Shown: positions 6,016-62,677 of the stretch, piece by piece
Layout: the number at the start of each line of letters is the position of its first letter
How positions within the stretch are numbered: position 1 is the first letter of the stretch
Assembly (NCBI GenBank): GCA_021824625.1
Contig: JAKAKE010000179.1
Coordinates: 16,060 to 80,059, forward strand
Source of the DNA: Bacteroidota bacterium
GTDB taxonomy: Bacteria; Bacteroidota; Ignavibacteria; Kapaibacteriales; UBA2268
Direction: 5' to 3'
DNA length: 64,000 nucleotides
Notes under the pieces: generated by a model
The model's database searches: none
What the model saw: the letters and a program-made list of their open reading frames with translations, nothing else
What the model was told of the DNA's origin: nothing
Translations under genes and position numbers: made by a program

Positions 6016-6088
6016 GCCAACATAGCTCAGCTGGTAGAGCAGCTCATTCGTAATGAGCAGGGCGTCAGTTCAAATCTGACTGTTGGCT
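6016..6088 (+). tRNA. tRNA-Thr (anticodon CGT); hybrid gene with a host-derived 5' part and a prophage-supplied 3' part
   Basis: Hand-folded 73-nt cloverleaf. Acceptor GCCAACA/TGTTGGC, D stem GCTC/GAGC, anticodon arm GCTCA-TTCGTAA-TGAGC, T arm GTCAG-TTCAAAT-CTGAC. Confidence 0.9.
6044..6061. repeat. attL core (TCATTCGTAATGAGCAGG)
   Basis: Exact 18-bp match to 62633-62650. Spans the anticodon loop, the 3' anticodon stem and the start of the variable loop of tRNA-Thr. Confidence 0.85.
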
Positions 6089-6207
6089 CTCCTTATTTAA
6101 TTAGTATTTATGAGATTTAACCTTTATTACTACTGTTAAGTAGTATATTCTAAACTGCCCTGAATTGCCCTAAATCGTACTTGTAAAAGGTCGAAATATG
6201 GTCGCCA

Positions 6208-6486
6208 TTATTTGAAAGCAAATTGTTTGAAATATTTTAATCTTGCTCTCCTTAAAATTTCATCTATTAATTCAGGTCTTATAAGTTCCGGAGGATTAAT
6301 AAAAATTTCATTTTCATTAATATTATCATCAAAAAGAATTTCAAAATTGTCTACATTGAAATTATAATTATTAAATTCTTTTATTAGTCTATCCCTTGCT
6401 AATACTTCATCGAAATTATTTTCTAAAGCAATCTCATGTCTCCATTCATTTAATCTTAATCTAATACCACCAATCAAATTTTCCAT
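6208..6486 (-). CDS. hypothetical protein (between attL and int)
   Basis: 92-aa ORF, co-oriented with and 15 nt downstream of the integrase gene. No recognisable motif. Confidence 0.5.
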   Translation of the reverse strand: MENLIGGIRLRLNEWRHEIALENNFDEVLARDRLIKEFNNYNFNVDNFEILFDDNINENEIFINPPELIRPELIDEILRRARLKYFKQFAFK

Positions 6487-6501
6487 GATTACTCCAATTA
6501 A

Positions 6502-7500
6502 TTATTCTTCAACCAAATTCATTATTTCTTTTTGCTGATAATGAGTATATATCTCTGTTACCTCAGGCGTCTTATGTCTCAACAACCACATAGCATATTC
6601 CTTTGGGATTCTCCTACGAAGTAACTTCATTCTGAATGTAACTCTGAACTCCTGCCAGCTTCTACCTCGTGCATCAATCTTTAAATCTTTATTTGCAATC
6701 CGAAGCTTCTTATTCAGAAACCCTGCACCCCTATAAGTCCATCTCCAAACCTGACCATCTCTCTTTGGGAGTGACTGTAAAATTGATAATGCTTTTTTAG
6801 TTATAGGTCTCGGTTCATCATTCTTTGTTATTTTATTTTTCCATATAATTAATGGTTCTTCCGGTTTAATTTGGGATGGTGTTAAAGTAAGACAATCAAC
6901 AATTCGGGCACCGGTCTCAAGCATGAACTCTATTAATAAAGCAACTTCATTATCCCGGGACCGGAAATAAGTAAGATATTTTTCAATCTCCTCATCCGAA
7001 TAACTTTCATTCTCTCTTTCAGTTTCCTTTTTCTTATAATCCGATTTAAATGTTGTTCGTTCAATCCATTTTTTTTTAGCACAAAAATTCAGGAACACCT
7101 GCAGGTTGGTTAAATAAGTATTTATTGAAACAGCACCATGCTTGGTTGTTTTTAAATAGTTCTGAATATCCTTTTCAACTTTGTCAACATCGAGATAATA
7201 ATTGTCGGTTATAATGGATTTAAAAGCATTCTGATAATTCCTCCTGGTCTTATCATATAAATTAATTTTAAAAGCCAGGAACTCTTTGAATGCATCATTT
7301 ATTTTTATTCGTTGAGTTCCGAGATTTCCGAGTTTGTTATAGTTCATCCACATTTGTTCGAGCAGAAGCTCGGACATTTCCCATCCCTTTTTAGTAGCCT
7401 TAAGACCTGTGGATTTCTTCTTACCTTTGAATTTGATATAAAGATGTCCCTTGTCTTCGAAAATACTACCTGGATAGGTTCTGTGTTTCTTACGGGGCAT
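6502..7500 (-). CDS. int: tyrosine-type site-specific integrase
   Basis: 332 aa. C-terminal catalytic region has TGARIVD (Arg), LLRHK (His/Arg box) and EIYTHY (Tyr). Adjacent to the tRNA att site. Confidence 0.9.
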   Translation of the reverse strand: MPRKKHRTYPGSIFEDKGHLYIKFKGKKKSTGLKATKKGWEMSELLLEQMWMNYNKLGNLGTQRIKINDAFKEFLAFKINLYDKTRRNYQNAFKSIITDNYYLDVDKVEKDIQNYLKTTKHGAVSINTYLTNLQVFLNFCAKKKWIERTTFKSDYKKKETERENESYSDEEIEKYLTYFRSRDNEVALLIEFMLETGARIVDCLTLTPSQIKPEEPLIIWKNKITKNDEPRPITKKALSILQSLPKRDGQVWRWTYRGAGFLNKKLRIANKDLKIDARGRSWQEFRVTFRMKLLRRRIPKEYAMWLLRHKTPEVTEIYTHYQQKEIMNLVEE

Positions 7501-7508
7501 AAATTGTT

Positions 7509-7907
7509 TTAATTTGGTAATTCTTTAATAGCTCTAGGTGTAATTTCAAAAGCTAAAGTTTTCTTGGTATTTAGAATTTTATCAGTAATATTTTCCCAAT
7601 GTTTTATTAGAAATTTTACTAATTCCCAATATGTATAACTATTTTTTTCTAATTTAATAAAGAATATTCTTATTCCACATGAACGACACAATTCATATTG
7701 TTGTTGAATTCTCTGAATCCTTTTATCATTAGTAATTAAAACGCCTTTTTCATTTGCAACTTCTGGAATTATTACTTCATCGCTTGCACCAGAGCCAAAT
7801 TCATCTATTGTGGCAAAAATTTCAATATTACGCTTATTAGGTATTTCTAAATATTTTATACCTAAAATTAAAGAATGTGGGATATTCTCATCAAAATATA
7901 TTTTCAT
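7509..7907 (-). CDS. DUF5615-type PIN-like putative toxin (VapC45-like)
   Basis: 132 aa. N-terminus MKIYFDENIP and GASDEVII...VLITNDKRI match the DUF5615 pattern. Overlaps the upstream DUF433 gene by 4 bp. Confidence 0.6.
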   Translation of the reverse strand: MKIYFDENIPHSLILGIKYLEIPNKRNIEIFATIDEFGSGASDEVIIPEVANEKGVLITNDKRIQRIQQQYELCRSCGIRIFFIKLEKNSYTYWELVKFLIKHWENITDKILNTKKTLAFEITPRAIKELPN

Positions 7908-8581
7908 GCGGCTTTTTCAAAAAAATTTATTGAATCATTTACACTTTTAATATCTATATTATATAATCTGGCAATAAAATCTTTCTTTTCACCACCTTTA
8001 TAAAATAAATAAATTGTTTCAGCCTGTATATTTGTATTTTTAATAATAGGTTGTCCAAATTGATGATGTGGATCAACAACTATATTTTTGTCTCTTCCGC
8101 GGGGCCAAAATCTTTCTGCTAAAAATGTCGAATCAAAATCAATTTTTTTTATATAATTTTCTATGATTTTTTTTATAGCTATTTGTTGAGTTGGATCAGC
8201 TTTAATAATTGTTTTATTTTTATCAGGACTATAAAATATTTTATTTTCATCACTCGAAATATAAGTAGTAGCAAATGGATACGGATTTCCAATATCCTTT
8301 GCAATTGTTTGATGAGCAGTAATTATTTGTTGAGAACTTATTTTTTTTTCTCTTAGTTTATAAAACACAAAAAATTCAATTAACATATAAAAATCCATAG
8401 CTAATTGACGACCAGAACCCCATGAATAACTGATATCTTCAGTTTTCATTCTGTTATTCCAGTAAGTTCCATGCCATCTTCTAACTTTATCTTGAGGTAA
8501 TCCCAAAATAAGCGATATATCCGGTACTGTATAGATGCCAGCCCCCAGTCGTGGTTTTGAAATATTTAAAATATCACTCAT
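7904..8581 (-). CDS. DUF433-type putative antitoxin with N-terminal HTH (VapB45-like)
   Basis: 225 aa. N-terminal segment GIYTVPDISLILGLPQDKVRRW looks HTH-like. C-terminal FGQPIIKNTNIQAETIYLFYKGGEKKDFIARLYNI resembles the DUF433 core. Confidence 0.6.
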   Translation of the reverse strand: MSDILNISKPRLGAGIYTVPDISLILGLPQDKVRRWHGTYWNNRMKTEDISYSWGSGRQLAMDFYMLIEFFVFYKLREKKISSQQIITAHQTIAKDIGNPYPFATTYISSDENKIFYSPDKNKTIIKADPTQQIAIKKIIENYIKKIDFDSTFLAERFWPRGRDKNIVVDPHHQFGQPIIKNTNIQAETIYLFYKGGEKKDFIARLYNIDIKSVNDSINFFEKAA

Positions 8582-37876: not shown

Positions 37877-38459
37877 CTATTAATTTAGACTTGCTACCAT
37901 GAACAATTATGTTTACAGTTGATTCTAATTTCTCTCCTCCTGAAGTCAAATCACTTTTCACTATTTCGTTTGGCTCGCCCCGTGACATTCGCTCAATACC
38001 AATAATAGAGCTGAACTCATGGGCGGCTTTAATCATTTTATCAAATAATCTTTCGAGTGGAATACTATTAAAATCTTTTATCTTTCCAGTTTTTATTCTA
38101 TGATTAATTGCTTCTGCAGGAAGTATAAGACATTTTTGAAATATCAGGGATTCTTGAGTATGACGTTTTGCCATCTCCCTGACTTCACGAATAATAGTTT
38201 CCCTTCTTTCTCTGTCTTTCTCATCAGCCCATGCTTTAGCACGATTAATCCAGTTCCATTTCTGTGAGTGGAGGTTCATTGTAACATAAGCCCTACCTGT
38301 TGCATCGGCTACTCTTTGGATTGTACGTGAGGGACCCATATCTCTGTAGATGCAGAAATAATCAAAAAGTTTTTCTGATTCGCCTGGCTGTCGTTCCCAG
38401 GGGATTACATCCTCTTTAACTATTTTCTTTTGATATTTAAATTTGTTTTCCATTTTCAC
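37860..38459 (-). CDS. putative terminase small subunit
   Basis: 199 aa. Overlaps the TerL start by 17 nt. HTH-like segment GPSRTIQRVADATGRAYVTM. Confidence 0.45.
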   Translation of the reverse strand: MKMENKFKYQKKIVKEDVIPWERQPGESEKLFDYFCIYRDMGPSRTIQRVADATGRAYVTMNLHSQKWNWINRAKAWADEKDRERRETIIREVREMAKRHTQESLIFQKCLILPAEAINHRIKTGKIKDFNSIPLERLFDKMIKAAHEFSSIIGIERMSRGEPNEIVKSDLTSGGEKLESTVNIIVHGSKSKLIDENNE

Positions 38460-39897
38460 TATCCACTGCTATTGCATCAAAAAAGTTTTTATTAATAATT
38501 TCTCCATTCCTTTTGATGATACACTCTTTATTATTCTCTTTACAATGCTGAATAAATCTCTGCACAATTAAATCACAGAATTGAGGTTCGAGTTCCATTC
38601 CATAACAAACTCTTTTTAGAATATCCGAAGTGATTAATGTAGAGCCTGAACCTAAGAATAAATCCAGAACAAGCTCACCCTCCTTAGAACTATTATTGAG
38701 GGCTTTTGCAGAGAGGGCCAGTGGTTTTTGGGTGGGGTGTATATAATTCCCATTATGCTCTCTCGATATTTCCCAAACAGTCGTTTCATTGTTGGGACCG
38801 AACCATCTTGCATTTTTACCGTTACCGACTGAACAATCTTTTCCTGCAAATACACAGGGTTCATGAATTCTTTTATAATGTACCCAGGAAAGAGGAGCCA
38901 CTTGTTTTTTCCAAATAATTGGAACTTTATCATAAGGGATTTCATTAATAACAAGTGCCTGTATCAATTCCCTGAAATATGTAGTTGCATGCCAGATGTA
39001 ATAGTGAGCATACTCGATTAAATATTTTTTTGCGATACTTAGGAATGTAGTCAGGAACTTTTGATAATCCTCATCCGACATATCATCTTTCCATCCCGAG
39101 CAATAAAGTGCAGTCCAGTCTTTACCATGCGGATCATCTTTTGAACCGCGTTTCATATTGAATTCAGCGTAATTTACATTATAAGGCGGGTCCGTATAAA
39201 GTAAATGTGCAATTTTATGATTCATTAATTTTCTAACATCATCTTCATTAGTAGAATCACCACATAAGAGGCGATGCTCATTGAGTTCGTATAAATCCCC
39301 TCTTTGAGTTTTCGGCACCTCGGGTATTTCTGTTTCAAAATTATCTTCATCAATGTCTTCCAATTCAGGATTTGTATCATCGAGGGCAGCATCGAGTAAA
39401 TCACCAAACTCTTCCTCAGAGAACGGCATTGTTGACATTAAATCATCTTCAGGAAAAACTATTTTTATTTCCTGTAATAATTTTGATAACTTTTCAACAT
39501 CGGCATCAAAGTTTGTTTCATTAGTCTCGACAGCAATTCTACGAGCTTCATCTAATGATATCTTTCCATGGTCATAAGCAATGACAAATTTTTTACCAAG
39601 CTTATAGAAAGCAACCAATCTGTGATTGCCATCAACCACTTCATAGTATCCTGTATCGAGAAGTCTTAATTGACATGTAACTATCTGCCCATTCCTTTTG
39701 ATATTATTCAAAAGTTGTTGAGCCATAAAAGCATCGTCTGTTTTATAGTTCCAGTTGGCAGGGACTAATAATTCGATCGGAAATATTTTATAATTCTTAA
39801 AATTATTAAATTCATCCTCGGGGATATCCTTCAATTGTCTTGGGTTGATAGCCTTGATTTTCTTATGAAGATCCTGAACCGATACCGAAAAATTCAT
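38437..39897 (-). CDS. ParB-like nuclease domain fused to a DNA methyltransferase (N6-A/N4-C, beta class)
   Basis: VVDGNHRL (ParB box), TDPPYNVNY (motif IV) and DLFLGSGST (motif I). Confidence 0.85.
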   Translation of the reverse strand: MNFSVSVQDLHKKIKAINPRQLKDIPEDEFNNFKNYKIFPIELLVPANWNYKTDDAFMAQQLLNNIKRNGQIVTCQLRLLDTGYYEVVDGNHRLVAFYKLGKKFVIAYDHGKISLDEARRIAVETNETNFDADVEKLSKLLQEIKIVFPEDDLMSTMPFSEEEFGDLLDAALDDTNPELEDIDEDNFETEIPEVPKTQRGDLYELNEHRLLCGDSTNEDDVRKLMNHKIAHLLYTDPPYNVNYAEFNMKRGSKDDPHGKDWTALYCSGWKDDMSDEDYQKFLTTFLSIAKKYLIEYAHYYIWHATTYFRELIQALVINEIPYDKVPIIWKKQVAPLSWVHYKRIHEPCVFAGKDCSVGNGKNARWFGPNNETTVWEISREHNGNYIHPTQKPLALSAKALNNSSKEGELVLDLFLGSGSTLITSDILKRVCYGMELEPQFCDLIVQRFIQHCKENNKECIIKRNGEIINKNFFDAIAVDSENGKQI

Positions 39898-56837: not shown

Positions 56838-59800
56838 ATGAATCAAAACCTTAAATACCTGGTTGACTTTATTGTCAAAATGGATTACGACAAAGGCACT
56901 GCCGATAAAGTTGCAGTTGAATTAAGTAAGGTTTTGGAAGGTAAACTCCCGAAAGACCTTCTTTCTCCGGAAGCGATAAATAATACTATTGCAGGACTGA
57001 AACAGATTCAGGAAAGCGGAGTTGATGTTACTCAAATATTTGAGGATTTATCATCATCATTCGATGATACTGCTCTTCAGGATTTATCTGTTGAATTTGG
57101 TTCCCTTCTTGAAAATATAGGCAATATTGATTTGGGACCTCTCGAAGGAATGTTTGATGCTTTATCACCAGACCAGATAGAAGCATTTGGTTCAGCTCTT
57201 AATGATTCATTTGCTAATATTGATGTCGGTCAGCTTGGTGAAGCTTTTAATCAAATAAAAGCTAATATGGCTAATTTAAAAGAGGGAGGAGCAAAAGCCG
57301 GTAAGGAAACAGGTGAGGGTATTGCACACGGAATCGGAAGTGCAGGTCCCAAAGCACATGGTGAAGGTAAACATGTAGGAAATGAAGCAAAACATGGATT
57401 ACAGGAATCCTTAAAGGAAATCCCCTCAATGATGCTGGCAATGTTTGGGGGCTCGATGCTTACCCAGGGTTTCATGGGAATTACCCAGGGAATTGAAAGT
57501 ATATTCGAAGCCGGTAAAGAATTACATGAAAATCTTGAGAGAATGGAGCTTGGGTTCGCATCGGCTGGGTTAGCAGGCGAGGATATGGAAAAGCAAATGG
57601 GACAGACAAAAGAATTTGCTGCTGCCTTATCTCAGGAGTTTGGTGTTGGTGCTTCTGCTATCAGAGACTATTCCGCTCAAGCCGCATTACTTGGTGGTTC
57701 GACAGGGAAGATGAATGAGGATATAACAAAACTTGCTGTCGGTTTGACAAAAGCATCGGGGGGTTTAGTTGATGCCTCGATGATTATCAGGGTGTTTTCA
57801 AGAGGGCTGGCTGATCCTGAAGCAGAAGCGAATCTCGGTAGGTTGAAAATGACTTTCCCTGCTTTGGCTACTGCATTAAAAGGTATTACTGAACCTGCCG
57901 AATTGACACGTGTAGCTTTAGAAAAAATGAACCCGATGTTTGAACTTATGACAGAACAGGCTCAGCGTCCTGTTGGTGCAATGGAACGTTTTGAAAATGC
58001 CTTAATGGATTTGAAAAAGAATGTAGGATTAACGTTAGTCGAAGGATTAAGTCCGCTGATAGATTTTATTGGAACTGAAGTTGTACCAACCGTTTTAGGA
58101 ATGGCAAAAGGGGTTAGAGAAACAACCCATTGGATTGAAGAACATAAAGAAGTATTGCTGACTATTGCCACTCCATTGGCTATATTAACGGCTGCTTATG
58201 TCTGGCAAAATTTGGCTCTTGGTGAAATGATTGCAAAAAAGTCAGTATTAGTATTAACATGGATTCCCAAAAAAATTAAAGCCCTTTTTGCTGAAACGGC
58301 AGCTACCGAAGGAACAACAGCGGCACAAAGGATATTAAATAATGTTATGAATATGAATCCTTATGTATTGGCTATTGCAAGCATTGCTGCTTTAGTCGGT
58401 GCAATGAAAGTTCTAAATGATATGATTACAATTACAACCGCAGAGCAAAGACATCATTTGGAAGGACAAAAGGAAAAAATAGAAAAGAATATTGAAGAAA
58501 CTAAAAGTAATATTGAAACCGCAAAATCTAATTTAGAATTAATAAAATCATATACCGAACTTGGACAAAAACAAAATAAAACTGCCGAAGAAACTAATAG
58601 ATTTGAAGATGCTTTGTTATCCTTAAAAGATGCTTATCCTAAACTTGTAGATACTTCAAAATCTTTTGCTGAAAATCTAAAAAATTTAGCCTCTATAATT
58701 CCGCAAACTCAAAAAGAATTGCTTGGTTTACAAGCGACGTTGAGAGGTGAACAAAAGTTTGAATTAGAATTGAATGTTGCTCTTGCTAAAAATGCTGTTC
58801 AGCAAACCGGAGAAGATATAAATGATTTAATCGGTACTTATGAAACTCGATGGGGCAGGTTTTGGGAAGCACCAATTAGTATTTTAACAGAGAGATTAGG
58901 AGACTTTTTTGGCGATAATATAACTACAGGCAAAGTTGCACAGGATTTAGCACCTTTATATGAAGGAATGAAAAAAGCTACTAATTTAACTGAATTAAAC
59001 CGTGCATATCATGAATCATTCGCGCAATTAAAAGATAATCCATGGTTCAAAGATTTACCTGATGATTTACAGGCAAAAGTTATCGAAGGTTTTAAAGGTT
59101 ATAGAGAAAAGCAAAAAGAAGTTTTAGAAGCTACTAAACAAGTTATCGCTGCCGATACTGCCGAATTCTTTTCAAAACAAATTTCCAAAGGAGTGGATTC
59201 GGAATCAATAAAAAATGCTTGGAAATCTGCTGCGGAAAAAGGCAAAGATATGAGTTCAGTAGTCCAAGGATTAAACAGAGATTGGGGTATAACGGATGAC
59301 CAATTAATAAAAATTCTTGGAATTACAAAAGAAGAACTTGATAAAATTAAACAAACTGTGCCAGTAGTTCAGGATTTAGCAGGAGCATGGCAACAGGTTA
59401 ATAAAACTACGAGTGAAGCACTGAATACTTCTTTAGGTAAATTAAATGAAATGATTCGAAAGAAAAAGGAAGGTGAGGATTTTAATCAAGCCGAATATGA
59501 CGCTGAATTAAAAAATGCTCAAAATTTAGATAAAAAATTAGATAGTTATAATAAAATAAATGAAGAAAATAAAAAACGAATAGGAATTACAGAACAGGAA
59601 AAAAAATCAGGAAAAACATTATCAGAAATTGCAGAAGAACGTTATGAAAAAGCAAAATTATCATTACAACTTGACTTTGATAAATTTGAATATTCTGTGA
59701 ACCAAATAGCAATAGAAGAAGTGTTAGCAGGTAAAAGAAAAGAAGCGAAATTAAATGCTGAAGAAGAGACACTATTAGCCGAACGTAAAACAACTTTACT

Positions 59801-61301
59801 TTCAAATCAACTTGATTTATATAAAAATATATTTGCAAATTTAAACACAAAACCAAAAGAAGAAAATATTCAGGAATTTTTAAAGGCCATTCAAGATGCT
59901 TTAACTACTGAAACAAATTTAAAATTAAAAGTCTCTCCCGATGAACTTAAATCTCTTCAACAAGAACTTCAAATGAAACAATTGGAGTTTGACCTTGAAA
60001 TTGGATTTGATATAAAAGGTACTACTGATGCAATGGTTAATCTTGTGCAATCGCAAATTGATGATTTAAATTCTAAGTTATTGAAAGAAACCGATGATAA
60101 AGCAAAGATAGAACTACAAACTAAAATTTTTGATTTAGAAAAAAGGATGGGTGAGATTATTAAGACCGGTTCCGAGAAAATCATAGCCGACATCCAGGAG
60201 AAATCACAAAAGGAAATCGAGCTTACTAATCAGAAATACGACAAGCTCATCGAAATGGCAAAGCAGTTCAATGAATTATACAATCAAACACGGTCAAAGT
60301 TTTATGATAACCAATTAAACGATGAACTCAGAAAATTACAAAATAATCAGGATGAACGTTCAAAAATACTTGACAAACAAAAAGAATATGAGTTGCTTTC
60401 GGAAGAGGAGTTTCAATATAAAAAGAAACAATTAGATGAGAAATTTGCTGCTGAAAAAGAAGCAAAAGAGAAGGAATTAGCTAATAGAAAACTTGCATTG
60501 GAAAATTCAATTAAAGGCATAGAAATTTATGCCCAAATGCAAAAAGATAAAGAGTTATTGGAAAAAACACAAAAAGCACAACAAGATGAATATGATACTT
60601 TACAAAATGCAATTCTCTTTAAAAAATCACATAACATAGCTGTATCAAAAACTGAAGAAGATAGACTTAAAGAATTAGCTAAAAATTTAAGTGATACAAA
60701 AGATTTATTAGCAACAAAGGGTAATGAAACTAATGTTCTTCTCGATACTATGGGAACAGAGGTGAGCGAAGGTTTAACTCGTCTTTTTGCCGGTGATAAA
60801 GGGGCTATGCATGATGCAATGAAAGAAACATTAGAATTAATAACCGGATTTCTTGAGAAAAAAGTTGAAGCAATGATTCTCGGTTGGTTAGCGTCACCAG
60901 CTGTTGTTGAATGGGCAGCAGCTTTACCATTCCCATTAAATTTAGCACTTATACCGGTTGCAGAAGCTCTATTAAGACCCCTTATCCGAGCAGTAGCAAA
61001 TCCAATTTTAGAAAGTATATCCTCATTTGAAACCGGTGGCCGTGTTGATACACCAACAAAATTTATTGCCGGAGATGGTTCTAAATTAGGAGGAATTAAC
61101 AGGGAATGGATATTCCGGGATGAACAACTCAAACAGACAGTTCAAATGGCAGTGAATATTTCAAACAATGCACTTGCTAATAGATTGGACAGACTTTATG
61201 ACTTATTAGCTTCCCAGGAATTGCAGGCAATCTTCAGGGGGCCTGATATGATTTTAGCAATGAAAAAAGCAAAATATATGCAGAATCAGAGTTCGATATA
61301 A
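56838..61301 (+). CDS. tail tape measure protein
   Basis: 1487 aa. Gly/Ala-rich hydrophobic segments plus a long coiled coil. Follows the chaperone pair. Confidence 0.85.
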   Translation: MNQNLKYLVDFIVKMDYDKGTADKVAVELSKVLEGKLPKDLLSPEAINNTIAGLKQIQESGVDVTQIFEDLSSSFDDTALQDLSVEFGSLLENIGNIDLGPLEGMFDALSPDQIEAFGSALNDSFANIDVGQLGEAFNQIKANMANLKEGGAKAGKETGEGIAHGIGSAGPKAHGEGKHVGNEAKHGLQESLKEIPSMMLAMFGGSMLTQGFMGITQGIESIFEAGKELHENLERMELGFASAGLAGEDMEKQMGQTKEFAAALSQEFGVGASAIRDYSAQAALLGGSTGKMNEDITKLAVGLTKASGGLVDASMIIRVFSRGLADPEAEANLGRLKMTFPALATALKGITEPAELTRVALEKMNPMFELMTEQAQRPVGAMERFENALMDLKKNVGLTLVEGLSPLIDFIGTEVVPTVLGMAKGVRETTHWIEEHKEVLLTIATPLAILTAAYVWQNLALGEMIAKKSVLVLTWIPKKIKALFAETAATEGTTAAQRILNNVMNMNPYVLAIASIAALVGAMKVLNDMITITTAEQRHHLEGQKEKIEKNIEETKSNIETAKSNLELIKSYTELGQKQNKTAEETNRFEDALLSLKDAYPKLVDTSKSFAENLKNLASIIPQTQKELLGLQATLRGEQKFELELNVALAKNAVQQTGEDINDLIGTYETRWGRFWEAPISILTERLGDFFGDNITTGKVAQDLAPLYEGMKKATNLTELNRAYHESFAQLKDNPWFKDLPDDLQAKVIEGFKGYREKQKEVLEATKQVIAADTAEFFSKQISKGVDSESIKNAWKSAAEKGKDMSSVVQGLNRDWGITDDQLIKILGITKEELDKIKQTVPVVQDLAGAWQQVNKTTSEALNTSLGKLNEMIRKKKEGEDFNQAEYDAELKNAQNLDKKLDSYNKINEENKKRIGITEQEKKSGKTLSEIAEERYEKAKLSLQLDFDKFEYSVNQIAIEEVLAGKRKEAKLNAEEETLLAERKTTLLSNQLDLYKNIFANLNTKPKEENIQEFLKAIQDALTTETNLKLKVSPDELKSLQQELQMKQLEFDLEIGFDIKGTTDAMVNLVQSQIDDLNSKLLKETDDKAKIELQTKIFDLEKRMGEIIKTGSEKIIADIQEKSQKEIELTNQKYDKLIEMAKQFNELYNQTRSKFYDNQLNDELRKLQNNQDERSKILDKQKEYELLSEEEFQYKKKQLDEKFAAEKEAKEKELANRKLALENSIKGIEIYAQMQKDKELLEKTQKAQQDEYDTLQNAILFKKSHNIAVSKTEEDRLKELAKNLSDTKDLLATKGNETNVLLDTMGTEVSEGLTRLFAGDKGAMHDAMKETLELITGFLEKKVEAMILGWLASPAVVEWAAALPFPLNLALIPVAEALLRPLIRAVANPILESISSFETGGRVDTPTKFIAGDGSKLGGINREWIFRDEQLKQTVQMAVNISNNALANRLDRLYDLLASQELQAIFRGPDMILAMKKAKYMQNQSSI

Positions 61302-61461
61302 ATAGAAAACAACGGCCCCGAGGAGCAAAAACCACATCGGTGTTAATGATTGAGATTGAGACGAGTGTGGTGATTGAATAAGTAAATAATTACAATTTGG
61401 TTAATATTAAACAAATTTATTAAAATTCATCAGAATTCATTAAAATTTACCAAAATATTAC

Positions 61462-61492
61462 TTGACTTAACAAGTCATATTGATTATATTTG
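61462..61492 (+). promoter_or_regulatory. promoter with overlapping palindromic operator upstream of the Panacea-domain gene
   Basis: TTGACT (61462-61467), 17 nt, TATATT (61485-61490). TATATTTG also fits TAnnTTTG. Palindrome TGACTT-AAC-AAGTCA at 61463-61477. Confidence 0.5.
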
Positions 61493-61543
61493 GATTGAAT
61501 TAGAGAATAATTAATCTAATTATTTAACCAATTGGGATAAATT

Positions 61544-62068
61544 ATGAAAATTGGCAAAGTAAATATTCTTGACATTGCCTCATTTGTTTTGCTTCATTGT
61601 ATTAAAAACGAAATATCAATAAGTCATTTAAAATTGCAAAAATTACTTTATTATATCCAAGCATGGCATCTTGTTTATTTTAGTAAAAATCAAATTTTTG
61701 ATGAGGTTCCTGAAGCATGGGTAAATGGACCTGTATATCGTTCAGTTTATAATAAATTTAAAGATTTTCAAATGTACAATAGATTAGAGTATAAAAAAGA
61801 TAAGCTTGATAAATTAGAAAGTGAATATAAAGATTCAATTGATAAATTAAATGTATTATCAAAAAATCAAATTGAATTTCTTAATGCTGTAATAGGTAAT
61901 TATGCTACTATGTCTCATGATAAATTAGTACTTTTAACACATTCAGAAGATCCATGGAATAAAGCAAGAAAAGACTGCAAACCTTTTGAATATTCTAATA
62001 ATCAGATATCTATTGATGATATGTTTGAATTTTACTCATCGAAATTAAATCAAAAAAGTATTTCATAA
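61544..62068 (+). CDS. Panacea-domain (DUF4065, SocA/GepA-like) putative antitoxin
   Basis: 174 aa. ISHLKLQKLLYYIQAWHLVYF...WVNGPVYRSVY is the characteristic DUF4065 N-terminal pattern. Confidence 0.7.
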   Translation: MKIGKVNILDIASFVLLHCIKNEISISHLKLQKLLYYIQAWHLVYFSKNQIFDEVPEAWVNGPVYRSVYNKFKDFQMYNRLEYKKDKLDKLESEYKDSIDKLNVLSKNQIEFLNAVIGNYATMSHDKLVLLTHSEDPWNKARKDCKPFEYSNNQISIDDMFEFYSSKLNQKSIS

Positions 62069-62073
62069 TTTTT

Positions 62074-62562
62074 ATGACATACATTTTTCCAGAAACCGAT
62101 ATACCCATAAAAAAATATCATTTTGGTGATAAAATAATCAATGGACAAATATCGAATTTCCCTATATTTTTTTCTTATGATTACATTGATATCAAACAAA
62201 CAGATTTTTCTTTTTCACAAAAATGTTTAAATAATTTTGATATTATTAAATACTTTAAAAAAGTAAAAGATATTTCAAATAAAACATTAAATGAATTAAT
62301 TGATGATAGTGATTTTAAAGAACATTTCCATATCTATAATAATCCCAGAGGAAAATTGCTAAGTTTAATAAAGATTATTTCAGGAAAAAAACATATAAAA
62401 GATGAGGAATTACCAAGTATTGGACAATTTGCTTTATATACTCATCCAAAAGGTAGTTCAAGAAGTAAAGGAATTAAATCCCCTAGAATTTTTTTTATTG
62501 TTGGACATAGTTCAATTTTATATATTATTTTGTATGATCCTTATCATGAAATAAAAGAATAA
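62074..62562 (+). CDS. uncharacterised 162-aa protein, candidate toxin partner of the Panacea-domain protein
   Basis: Starts 5 nt after the upstream stop. No motif I can assign. C-terminus PRIFFIVGHSSILYIILYDPYHEI. Confidence 0.6.
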   Translation: MTYIFPETDIPIKKYHFGDKIINGQISNFPIFFSYDYIDIKQTDFSFSQKCLNNFDIIKYFKKVKDISNKTLNELIDDSDFKEHFHIYNNPRGKLLSLIKIISGKKHIKDEELPSIGQFALYTHPKGSSRSKGIKSPRIFFIVGHSSILYIILYDPYHEIKE

Positions 62563-62632
62563 ATTGATAATTATAAGGTCGCTTTAAGGTCACCAGTTTT
62601 TGTAACTATGAATAAAATAATATGATATTTTA

Positions 62633-62650
62633 TCATTCGTAATGAGCAGG
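62633..62650. repeat. attR core (TCATTCGTAATGAGCAGG)
   Basis: Exact copy of 6044-6061. Confidence 0.85.
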
Positions 62651-62677
62651 CCGGCGGTTCGAGTCCGCCTGTTGGCT
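62633..62677 (+). pseudogene. orphan 3' part of tRNA-Thr (native host 3' half displaced by prophage integration)
   Basis: Anticodon loop/3' stem, T arm GGCGG-TTCGAGT-CCGCC, acceptor 3' strand TGTTGGC and discriminator T. No 5' half is present. Followed by a T-run. Confidence 0.85.

Follow-up and report, generated by a model that had tools for sequence, protein, structure and literature searches.

What are the two small genes that close the right end of the prophage in a 64,000-nt stretch of Bacteroidota DNA (contig JAKAKE010000179.1; the window, in what follows), and is their partnership a new one? An earlier note, made from the letters alone, had read them as a Panacea (DUF4065) antitoxin-like gene followed by an unassignable 162-aa protein, and had proposed a novel toxin or defense module. 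We found the two open reading frames (ORFs; 174 aa and 162 aa, 5 nt apart) exactly as it described them. The novelty did not survive: because the partner is homologous to the predicted PanT toxins of cluster T1, listed in 2022 (Kurata et al. 2022, PMC8832971), sequence comparison places it in that cluster, and the module is not a new system. The two genes are probably a PanA-PanT toxin-antitoxin (TA)-like module, panAT, the low-GC cargo of a temperate Bacteroidota phage that integrates into tRNA-Thr, at whose attP-proximal end they lie.

The first gene bears out its description as a Panacea gene. Its product contains the signature LKLQKLLYYIQAW...NGPVY and matches Pfam SocA_Panacea (PF13274) over residues 31-138 with E 3.2e-22 and 80 bits (cutoff 25.7), which passes the gathering threshold and covers positions 1-112 of the 113 in the profile. 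In PHROGs, it matches phrog_1281 (E 1e-38). Its match to the NCBIfam equivalog SocA_antitoxin (NF047745) is partial (E 6e-18, 65.1 bits) and under the cutoff of 190; from these profiles, the product is a Panacea protein and not a SocA orthologue or equivalog. We found the Panacea domain alone in Pfam, with no N-terminal helix-turn-helix, PAD1 or ZBD.

The partner proved as hard to assign as the earlier note had said, with no match in Pfam, PADLOC, PHROGs or PDB sequences and, in NCBIfam, a single chance-level match (NblA, E 0.022, 14.9 bits versus a cutoff of 100). Only seven relatives came from the first word-indexed search, few more from a word-indexed profile search with the divergent family alignment, and, at E ≤ 1, none among 50,697 phage records queried by tblastn with the toxin. 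When 1.84 billion representatives were searched exhaustively with a profile (E ≤ 1e-3), the family came to at least 234 clusters at 50% identity, with lengths of 160-180 aa in nearly every case. Within this family, D155 and H158 are each conserved at 98%, R138 and K/R135 at 88%, Y122 at 81% and H84 at 75%, and the C-terminal motif of the window protein is DPYHEI. The near-invariant Asp/His/Arg cluster suggests that PanT may be an enzyme.

Members of this family are almost invariably encoded next to panA. We fetched 41 toxin loci, of which GTDB species genomes supplied 32, IMG/VR contigs five and exact look-up four; the genome loci are nearly all from Bacteroidota (among them Bacteroides, Prevotella, Muribaculaceae, Rikenellaceae and Chitinophaga). 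In 39 of them panA lies directly upstream on the same strand; of the two exceptions, one is a contig edge and one a 40-aa fragment. The junction is most commonly a 4-nt ATGA overlap, and in the window it is a gap of 5 nt between two ORFs on the + strand. When flanking ORFs were clustered across the loci, PanA and PanT were the only conserved gene clusters. Chance adjacency of the two genes is ruled out by this clustering and by the 39 paired loci.

By the published FlaGs criteria, a PanAT TA-like locus has its partner within 100 nt, an architecture conserved between two or more species, and no conserved operon of more than three genes (Kurata et al. 2022, PMC8832971). Here, the gap is 5 nt, and the pairing recurs in 39 of 41 loci, across many Bacteroidota genera and five IMG/VR contigs. 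Since panA-panT adjacency is fixed and nothing else is conserved, the pair is a PanAT TA-like locus by this definition. The pair moves as a self-contained unit with its own promoter, and its settings include prophages, chromosomal sites and the vicinity of IS1595 elements. In 8 of 40 loci (L001, L002, L005, L006, L012, L029, L033 and L035), the gene for an IS1595-family transposase is located no more than about 2 kb from panAT, which suggests one route by which panAT moves between genomes.

The link to cluster T1 runs through Prevotella falsenii DSM 22864. We found that the toxin ORF of its locus, one of those fetched (L028), is exactly WP_024998564.1, which Dataset S1 of Kurata et al. (2022, PNAS, PMC8832971) lists as a predicted PanT of cluster T1 with partner PanA WP_036885121.1, order A|T and gap 2; the gap between panA and panT at this locus is likewise 2 nt. 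The window PanT is 33% identical to WP_024998564.1 (BLASTP, E 2e-19) and the window PanA is 39% identical to WP_036885121.1 (E 6e-42). The two modules are homologous in both proteins, and they share the antitoxin-first order, a gap or overlap of a few nucleotides, a stand-alone Panacea protein ('noNTD') and a Bacteroidota host. They differ in that the window copy sits on a tRNA-Thr prophage beside attR, and their identity is 33-39%.

The phage branch of T1 is more remote. We compared the 130-sequence window family by hhalign with three phage T1-type proteins, one from Salmonella phage Emek (YP_006560566.1) and two related ones, from Escherichia phage EC.P3 and Pseudomonas phage CF60a, and obtained a probability of 93.6% and E 2e-7 over 113 collinear columns. 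All three phage proteins match phrog_8366, and the window branch of T1 has no PHROGs match. BLAST and HMMER alone gave no connection between the Bacteroidota branch and the phage/proteobacterial branch.

A phage of Bacteroides offers another pair to set beside these. In the cultured Bacteroides phage BI-TP1 (L048; PQ571265.1, 17064-17994), the PanA gene gp23 overlaps gp24, which encodes 145 aa, next to the tape-measure gene. The gp24 product, whose C terminus reads FLDKTHKFY, matches phrog_8366 weakly (E 6e-8), and the existing annotation calls the products of gp23 and gp24 hypothetical. On these sequence features, gp23/gp24 looks like a further T1-type pair, in a tractable phage-host system.

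As to the promoter, we found that panAT very likely carries its own, of the Bacteroidota type. The consensus TAnnTTTG is well established for Bacteroides sigma-A promoters, and the −7 box TATATTTG fits it, 59 nt upstream of the panA ATG and with a TTG 20 nt before the box. In the 150 nt upstream of panA in 35 distinct related loci, TAnnTTTG is present in 28, mostly 24-62 nt before the ATG, versus 8% of window tiles and 12.5% of shuffles. Hence, the enrichment of this sequence over background argues for a promoter that belongs to the module. The earlier note had also claimed a promoter of the pair's own, as TTGACT-17-TATATT. These letters are present at 61462-61490, TATATT being the first six bases of TATATTTG, and this AT-rich stretch holds no excess of sigma-70-like sites (16 versus 13.1 ± 4.1 expected). 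The promoter stands, and the Bacteroidota −7 box is the better reading of it.

The perfect palindrome that overlaps the −33 region had been taken for an operator. It is present, and three results speak against the operator role: perfect 6-bp-arm palindromes occur in 38% of 150-nt window tiles and in 80% of shuffles of the upstream region, the 35 related loci hold no counterpart conserved by position or sequence, and PanA is without a DNA-binding domain. Panacea is, moreover, probably not a transcriptional autoregulator (Ernits et al. 2023). Hence, panAT does not have the features of an autoregulated type II operon with an operator palindrome.

Two sets of repeats lie around the promoter. A tandem 20-nt direct repeat, AATTTATTAAAATTCATCAG and AATTCATTAAAATTTACCAA, is found at 61414-61453, immediately upstream of it, and a 21-nt repeat (86% identity) at 61372-61392 and 61493-61513 brackets the promoter region. 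These could be regulatory or UP-like elements, or chance in AT-rich DNA.

The element that carries panAT is a prophage of about 56.6 kb in tRNA-Thr, from about 6.05 to 62.65 kb of the window, with genes that include integrase, terminase, portal, protease, primase and helicase; the host flank encodes a protein with a type IX secretion sorting domain, a sign of a Bacteroidota or FCB-group host. The earlier note had placed the pair as the last cargo before attR, and we found the toxin stop codon (62562) to be 70 nt from the attR core. Corroborating this position, the metagenomic contig L043 (ERZ27237563 k141_2418552, 53.4 kb), which encodes a toxin identical to that of the window, runs from the toxin gene through the core and on into what, in the window, adjoins attL on its right; this junction (L043 3560-3620) is attP. 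After it come a 92-aa ORF, the integrase gene, a PIN_10 gene and a DUF433 gene, as at window 6208-8581, and the integrase is thus just beyond the panAT module in the attP configuration. Hence, the element between attL and attR is a temperate phage. It bears the 3′ half of tRNA-Thr, so the tRNA gene is restored upon integration. The GC content of panAT is 22-24%, versus roughly 30-45% in the adjoining prophage DNA, and this fits acquired cargo.

At attR, Rfam gave only a sub-threshold tRNA match at 62602-62677, the remnant whose 3′ half differs from that of the attL tRNA, and an RNA antitoxin or other RNA element in the region was rejected on this result. On a second contig with an identical toxin gene, L046 (ERZ27237541 k141_2168466), the genes that follow (minus strand, 93 aa and 215 aa) are not those of the window or of L043, and this contig may come from a variant phage or a different integration context. 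The coordinates of the features are collected below.

Table 1. Position of the panAT module, its upstream elements and the attachment sites of the prophage (numbering of the window)
Feature	Coordinates	Strand	Description
panA promoter	61462..61492	+	−33-like TTG 61462-61464 and −7 box TATATTTG 61485-61492
Palindrome TGACTT-AAC-AAGTCA	61463..61477	.	Perfect; overlaps the −33 region
panA, predicted antitoxin	61544..62068	+	174-aa stand-alone Panacea (DUF4065) protein
panT, predicted toxin of PanT cluster T1, Bacteroidota branch	62074..62562	+	162 aa
tRNA-Thr(CGT)	6016-6089		ARAGORN
attL core, inside tRNA-Thr(CGT)	6044..6061	+	18-bp TCATTCGTAATGAGCAGG; prophage supplies new tRNA 3′ half
attR core	62633..62650	+	TCATTCGTAATGAGCAGG, then displaced original host tRNA-Thr 3′ half (to about 62680)
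Tyrosine integrase	6502..7500	−	Pfam Phage_integrase E 1.2e-7; phrog_1 E 1e-29

How would such a module work? In the lysogen, panA and panT would be co-transcribed from the TAnnTTTG promoter, and PanA would hold PanT inactive by direct binding, the type II mechanism already shown for other antitoxins that are stand-alone Panacea proteins. Loss of PanA, or its triggering (by phage infection or loss of the prophage, for instance), would leave PanT free to halt growth. PanT itself would most likely be an RNase of remote RelE/HigB-like architecture, with H84, K135, R138, D155 and H158 at one end of a β-sheet, and the outcome would be prophage stabilization and/or abortive-infection defense. We infer the toxicity, the neutralization, the RNase activity and the defense role of panAT. 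Among other PanAT pairs, complexes are formed and stand-alone Panacea neutralizes the toxin directly (Kurata et al. 2022, PMC8832971; Ernits et al. 2023).

Cluster T1 has its own experimental record. T1 spans many phyla, takes up roughly the first third of the text of Dataset S1 and appears to be the largest predicted PanT cluster. Three of its proteins were tested in E. coli, all labeled 'predicted mRNase'; one was toxic and none was neutralized (Kurata et al. 2022, PMC8832971). The three, from Salmonella phage vB_SemP_Emek, E. coli MOD1 and Clostridium cadaveris, are like the window PanT in their PanA partner, gene order and size (about 140-161 aa), and Emek, like the window copy, carries its pair as prophage or phage cargo. 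We found no later paper in the literature that characterizes T1.

Several results weigh against our main reading, and they come from experiment, sequence and structure alike. The C. cadaveris PanT (WP_074844970.1) is toxic and its cognate PanA does not neutralize it, and the E. coli MOD1 protein (WP_077635758.1) and the phage Emek protein are non-toxic in E. coli (Kurata et al. 2022, PMC8832971). No T1 pair has so far been validated as a true TA pair, and the P. falsenii pair is not counted in the stricter NetFlax network of 2023. In the sequence searches, neither PanA nor PanT matches a PADLOC-DB v2 family at E ≤ 10, none of the 130 toxin-family members matches a Pfam family, and a search of PDB sequences with the toxin-family profile was negative. 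The candidate active site is not uniform across T1: the proteobacterial branch is without KSPRI, and the DPYHEI of the window family corresponds there to LDREFxLYxH, so that H158 is replaced (LDREFxLY). The structural comparisons are set out below; in brief, Foldseek of the PanT model against PDB and BFVD gave nothing at E ≤ 0.001, and hhalign against HigB was not significant.

The same results nourish the best-surviving alternative, in which panAT is a conserved PanA-associated module whose T1 partner is non-toxic (for example a regulator, an effector that works only on a component of an invading phage, or a sensor partner) and PanA is a chaperone or sensor instead of an antidote. Two of the three tested T1 proteins being non-toxic in E. 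coli, the lack of rescue of the toxic one by PanA, the sensory role that Ernits et al. (2023) prefer for Panacea, the absence of the P. falsenii pair from the stricter NetFlax network and the lack of a detectable known toxin domain in the partner all point this way. However, panAT has the architecture of a type II operon (adjacency, 4-nt overlap, antitoxin first, a mobile unit, its own promoter), one T1 member is toxic, and the near-invariant Asp/His/Arg cluster suggests an enzyme. As Kurata et al. (PMC8832971) themselves say, non-toxicity in E. coli is compatible with toxicity in the native host and so does not exclude it. We regard the non-toxic module as rather unlikely.

If PanT is a toxin, what kind of toxin is it? 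A first AlphaFold2 model, built from eight sequences, was poor (predicted local distance difference test, pLDDT, 64.7) and its Foldseek matches were meaningless; it was superseded by a model that used the alignment of 130 toxin-family sequences. This second model is confident (pLDDT 92.9; predicted template modeling score, pTM, 0.88) and has an α/β fold that ends in a C-terminal three-stranded meander: strand 32-34, helices 54-68 and 72-77, strand 86-88, helix 93-103, and strands 116-120, 138-143 and 148-155. Given the meander topology and strand order of the model, H84, K135, R138, D155 and H158 would cluster at one end of the sheet, in a manner resembling the active site of a RelE-type RNase.

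The earlier note had called the C-terminal segment of the partner only vaguely RelE/ParE-like, and that likeness is weakly supported. The best Foldseek E values were 0.19 in PDB and 0.13 in BFVD. In PDB, the top match was 6af4_C (E 0.19, probability 0.47, template modeling (TM) score 0.46-0.50), and the top matches were chains of Streptococcus pneumoniae HigBA entries (TM up to 0.50, E 0.19-0.9). Among the 50 best PDB matches, nine are chains from entries of RelE/ParE-superfamily toxins or TA complexes (6af4, 6af3, 5jaa, 8c24 and 3u97), and a matched chain may be either toxin or antitoxin. For HigB, we used the Proteus vulgaris sequence, confirmed against 4MCT, both alone and as a 52-sequence family profile. 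With either, hhalign always placed KSPRIFF..G..ILxxDPYH on NWRITF..G..ILNYEDYH, and this register was not significant (P 0.04-0.09; family profile P 0.09 over 24 columns). The Pfam RelE/ParE models (ParE_toxin, HigB-like, YoeB, YafQ, Gp49) gave nothing at E ≤ 1 with any of the 130 family members, nor did those of NCBIfam with the window PanT.

Side by side, HigB (PF05015; 4MCT; 6AF4) and PanT are alike as small α/β proteins with an antiparallel three-stranded C-terminal meander, in the motifs Y-D-P-Y-H (window) and Y-E-D-Y-H (HigB), and in an Arg on the preceding strand (PRIFF versus WRITF). They differ in length (PanT exceeds HigB by about 70 residues), in the additional N-terminal segment and inserted helix (93-103) of PanT, and in antitoxin, which is Panacea here and not HigA. 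No match to RelE, ParE or HigB by sequence, profile or fold reached significance, and homology of PanT to them is not demonstrated. Our leading mechanistic guess, offered tentatively and at a little under an even chance, is a remote RelE/HigB-like RNase.

A second alternative keeps a functional PanAT and changes the toxin, which would be no RNase and would have a distinct fold and another target (for example DNA gyrase, on which ParE acts; some nucleotide or cofactor; or another component of translation). It draws on a confident model without a significant structural neighbor in PDB or BFVD, on the lack of significance of the profile-profile comparison with HigB, and on the divergence in activity that RelE/ParE-fold proteins can have (Ernits et al. 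2023). In addition, we could trace the 'mRNase' label of Table S1 to no HHpred or CDD annotation: the searchable T1 rows of Dataset S1 (PMC8832971) hold no informative text of this kind. In contrast, RelE/ParE-superfamily entries are over-represented among the top Foldseek matches (chains of toxin or antitoxin), the C-terminal hairpin and (D/E)xYH motif are in register with HigB, and acid/base and Arg/Lys residues would, from the strand order, sit where a RelE-type active site is. A non-RNase toxin thus seems to us improbable. A broader proposal, that T1 PanTs, including the Bacteroidota branch with its near-invariant D155-x-x-H158, R138 and K135, are a structurally distinct toxin class instead of diverged RelE/HigB RNases, is an unlikely one; were it true, what appears to be the largest set of Panacea-associated partners, one that still awaits validation, would act by a new biochemical activity or on a new target, and would be activated through a stand-alone Panacea sensor during phage infection of Bacteroidota.

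The weakest alternative is a type VI system like SocAB of Caulobacter crescentus, in which PanA would be a ClpXP adaptor that keeps the toxin degraded and does not block it by binding: the Panacea domain was first described in SocA, whose domain PanA shares and whose NCBIfam model it matches in part, but this match is far under the equivalog cutoff, the window toxin is unrelated to SocB, and all PanAT pairs examined by Kurata et al. (PMC8832971) form the stable complexes typical of type II, so that a proteolytic-adaptor mechanism is not expected and the idea is most improbable.

Other features of the prophage stand apart from these questions. Just upstream of the module, 56838-61301 (+) encodes a 1487-aa protein with weak matches to an 'endolysin' region (phrog_971, E 3e-7) and, below cutoff, to DUF4134; it has no tape-measure annotation, and at one related locus (L004) the gene immediately before panAT is similar, with 1648 aa. 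At the other end of the prophage, by the integrase, is another TA-like pair, 7509-7907 (−) and 7904-8581 (−), in which a PIN_10/DUF5615 protein (E 7e-12) overlaps a DUF433 protein (E 6e-7); this pair also follows attP on L043. The prophage further carries a tRNA-Met(CAT) at 14512-14584 (+), and a 486-aa protein (38437-39897, −) that matches DNA methyltransferase and ParB-like PHROGs (phrog_498, E 1e-92; the ParB-like ones at about 1e-15).

The panAT pair reveals no new kind of system. What it changes is annotation: two hypothetical prophage genes become a predicted PanA/PanT(T1) pair, and a Bacteroidota-wide family of about 160-180 aa without a Pfam entry, found only with PanA, is assigned to PanT T1. 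Cluster T1 could also become testable, with a confident model, candidate catalytic residues (H84, K135, R138, D155 and H158) and a natural prophage with defined att sites and an attP contig. The setting of that prophage is gut and environmental Bacteroidota, where defense and addiction modules are less studied than in Proteobacteria.

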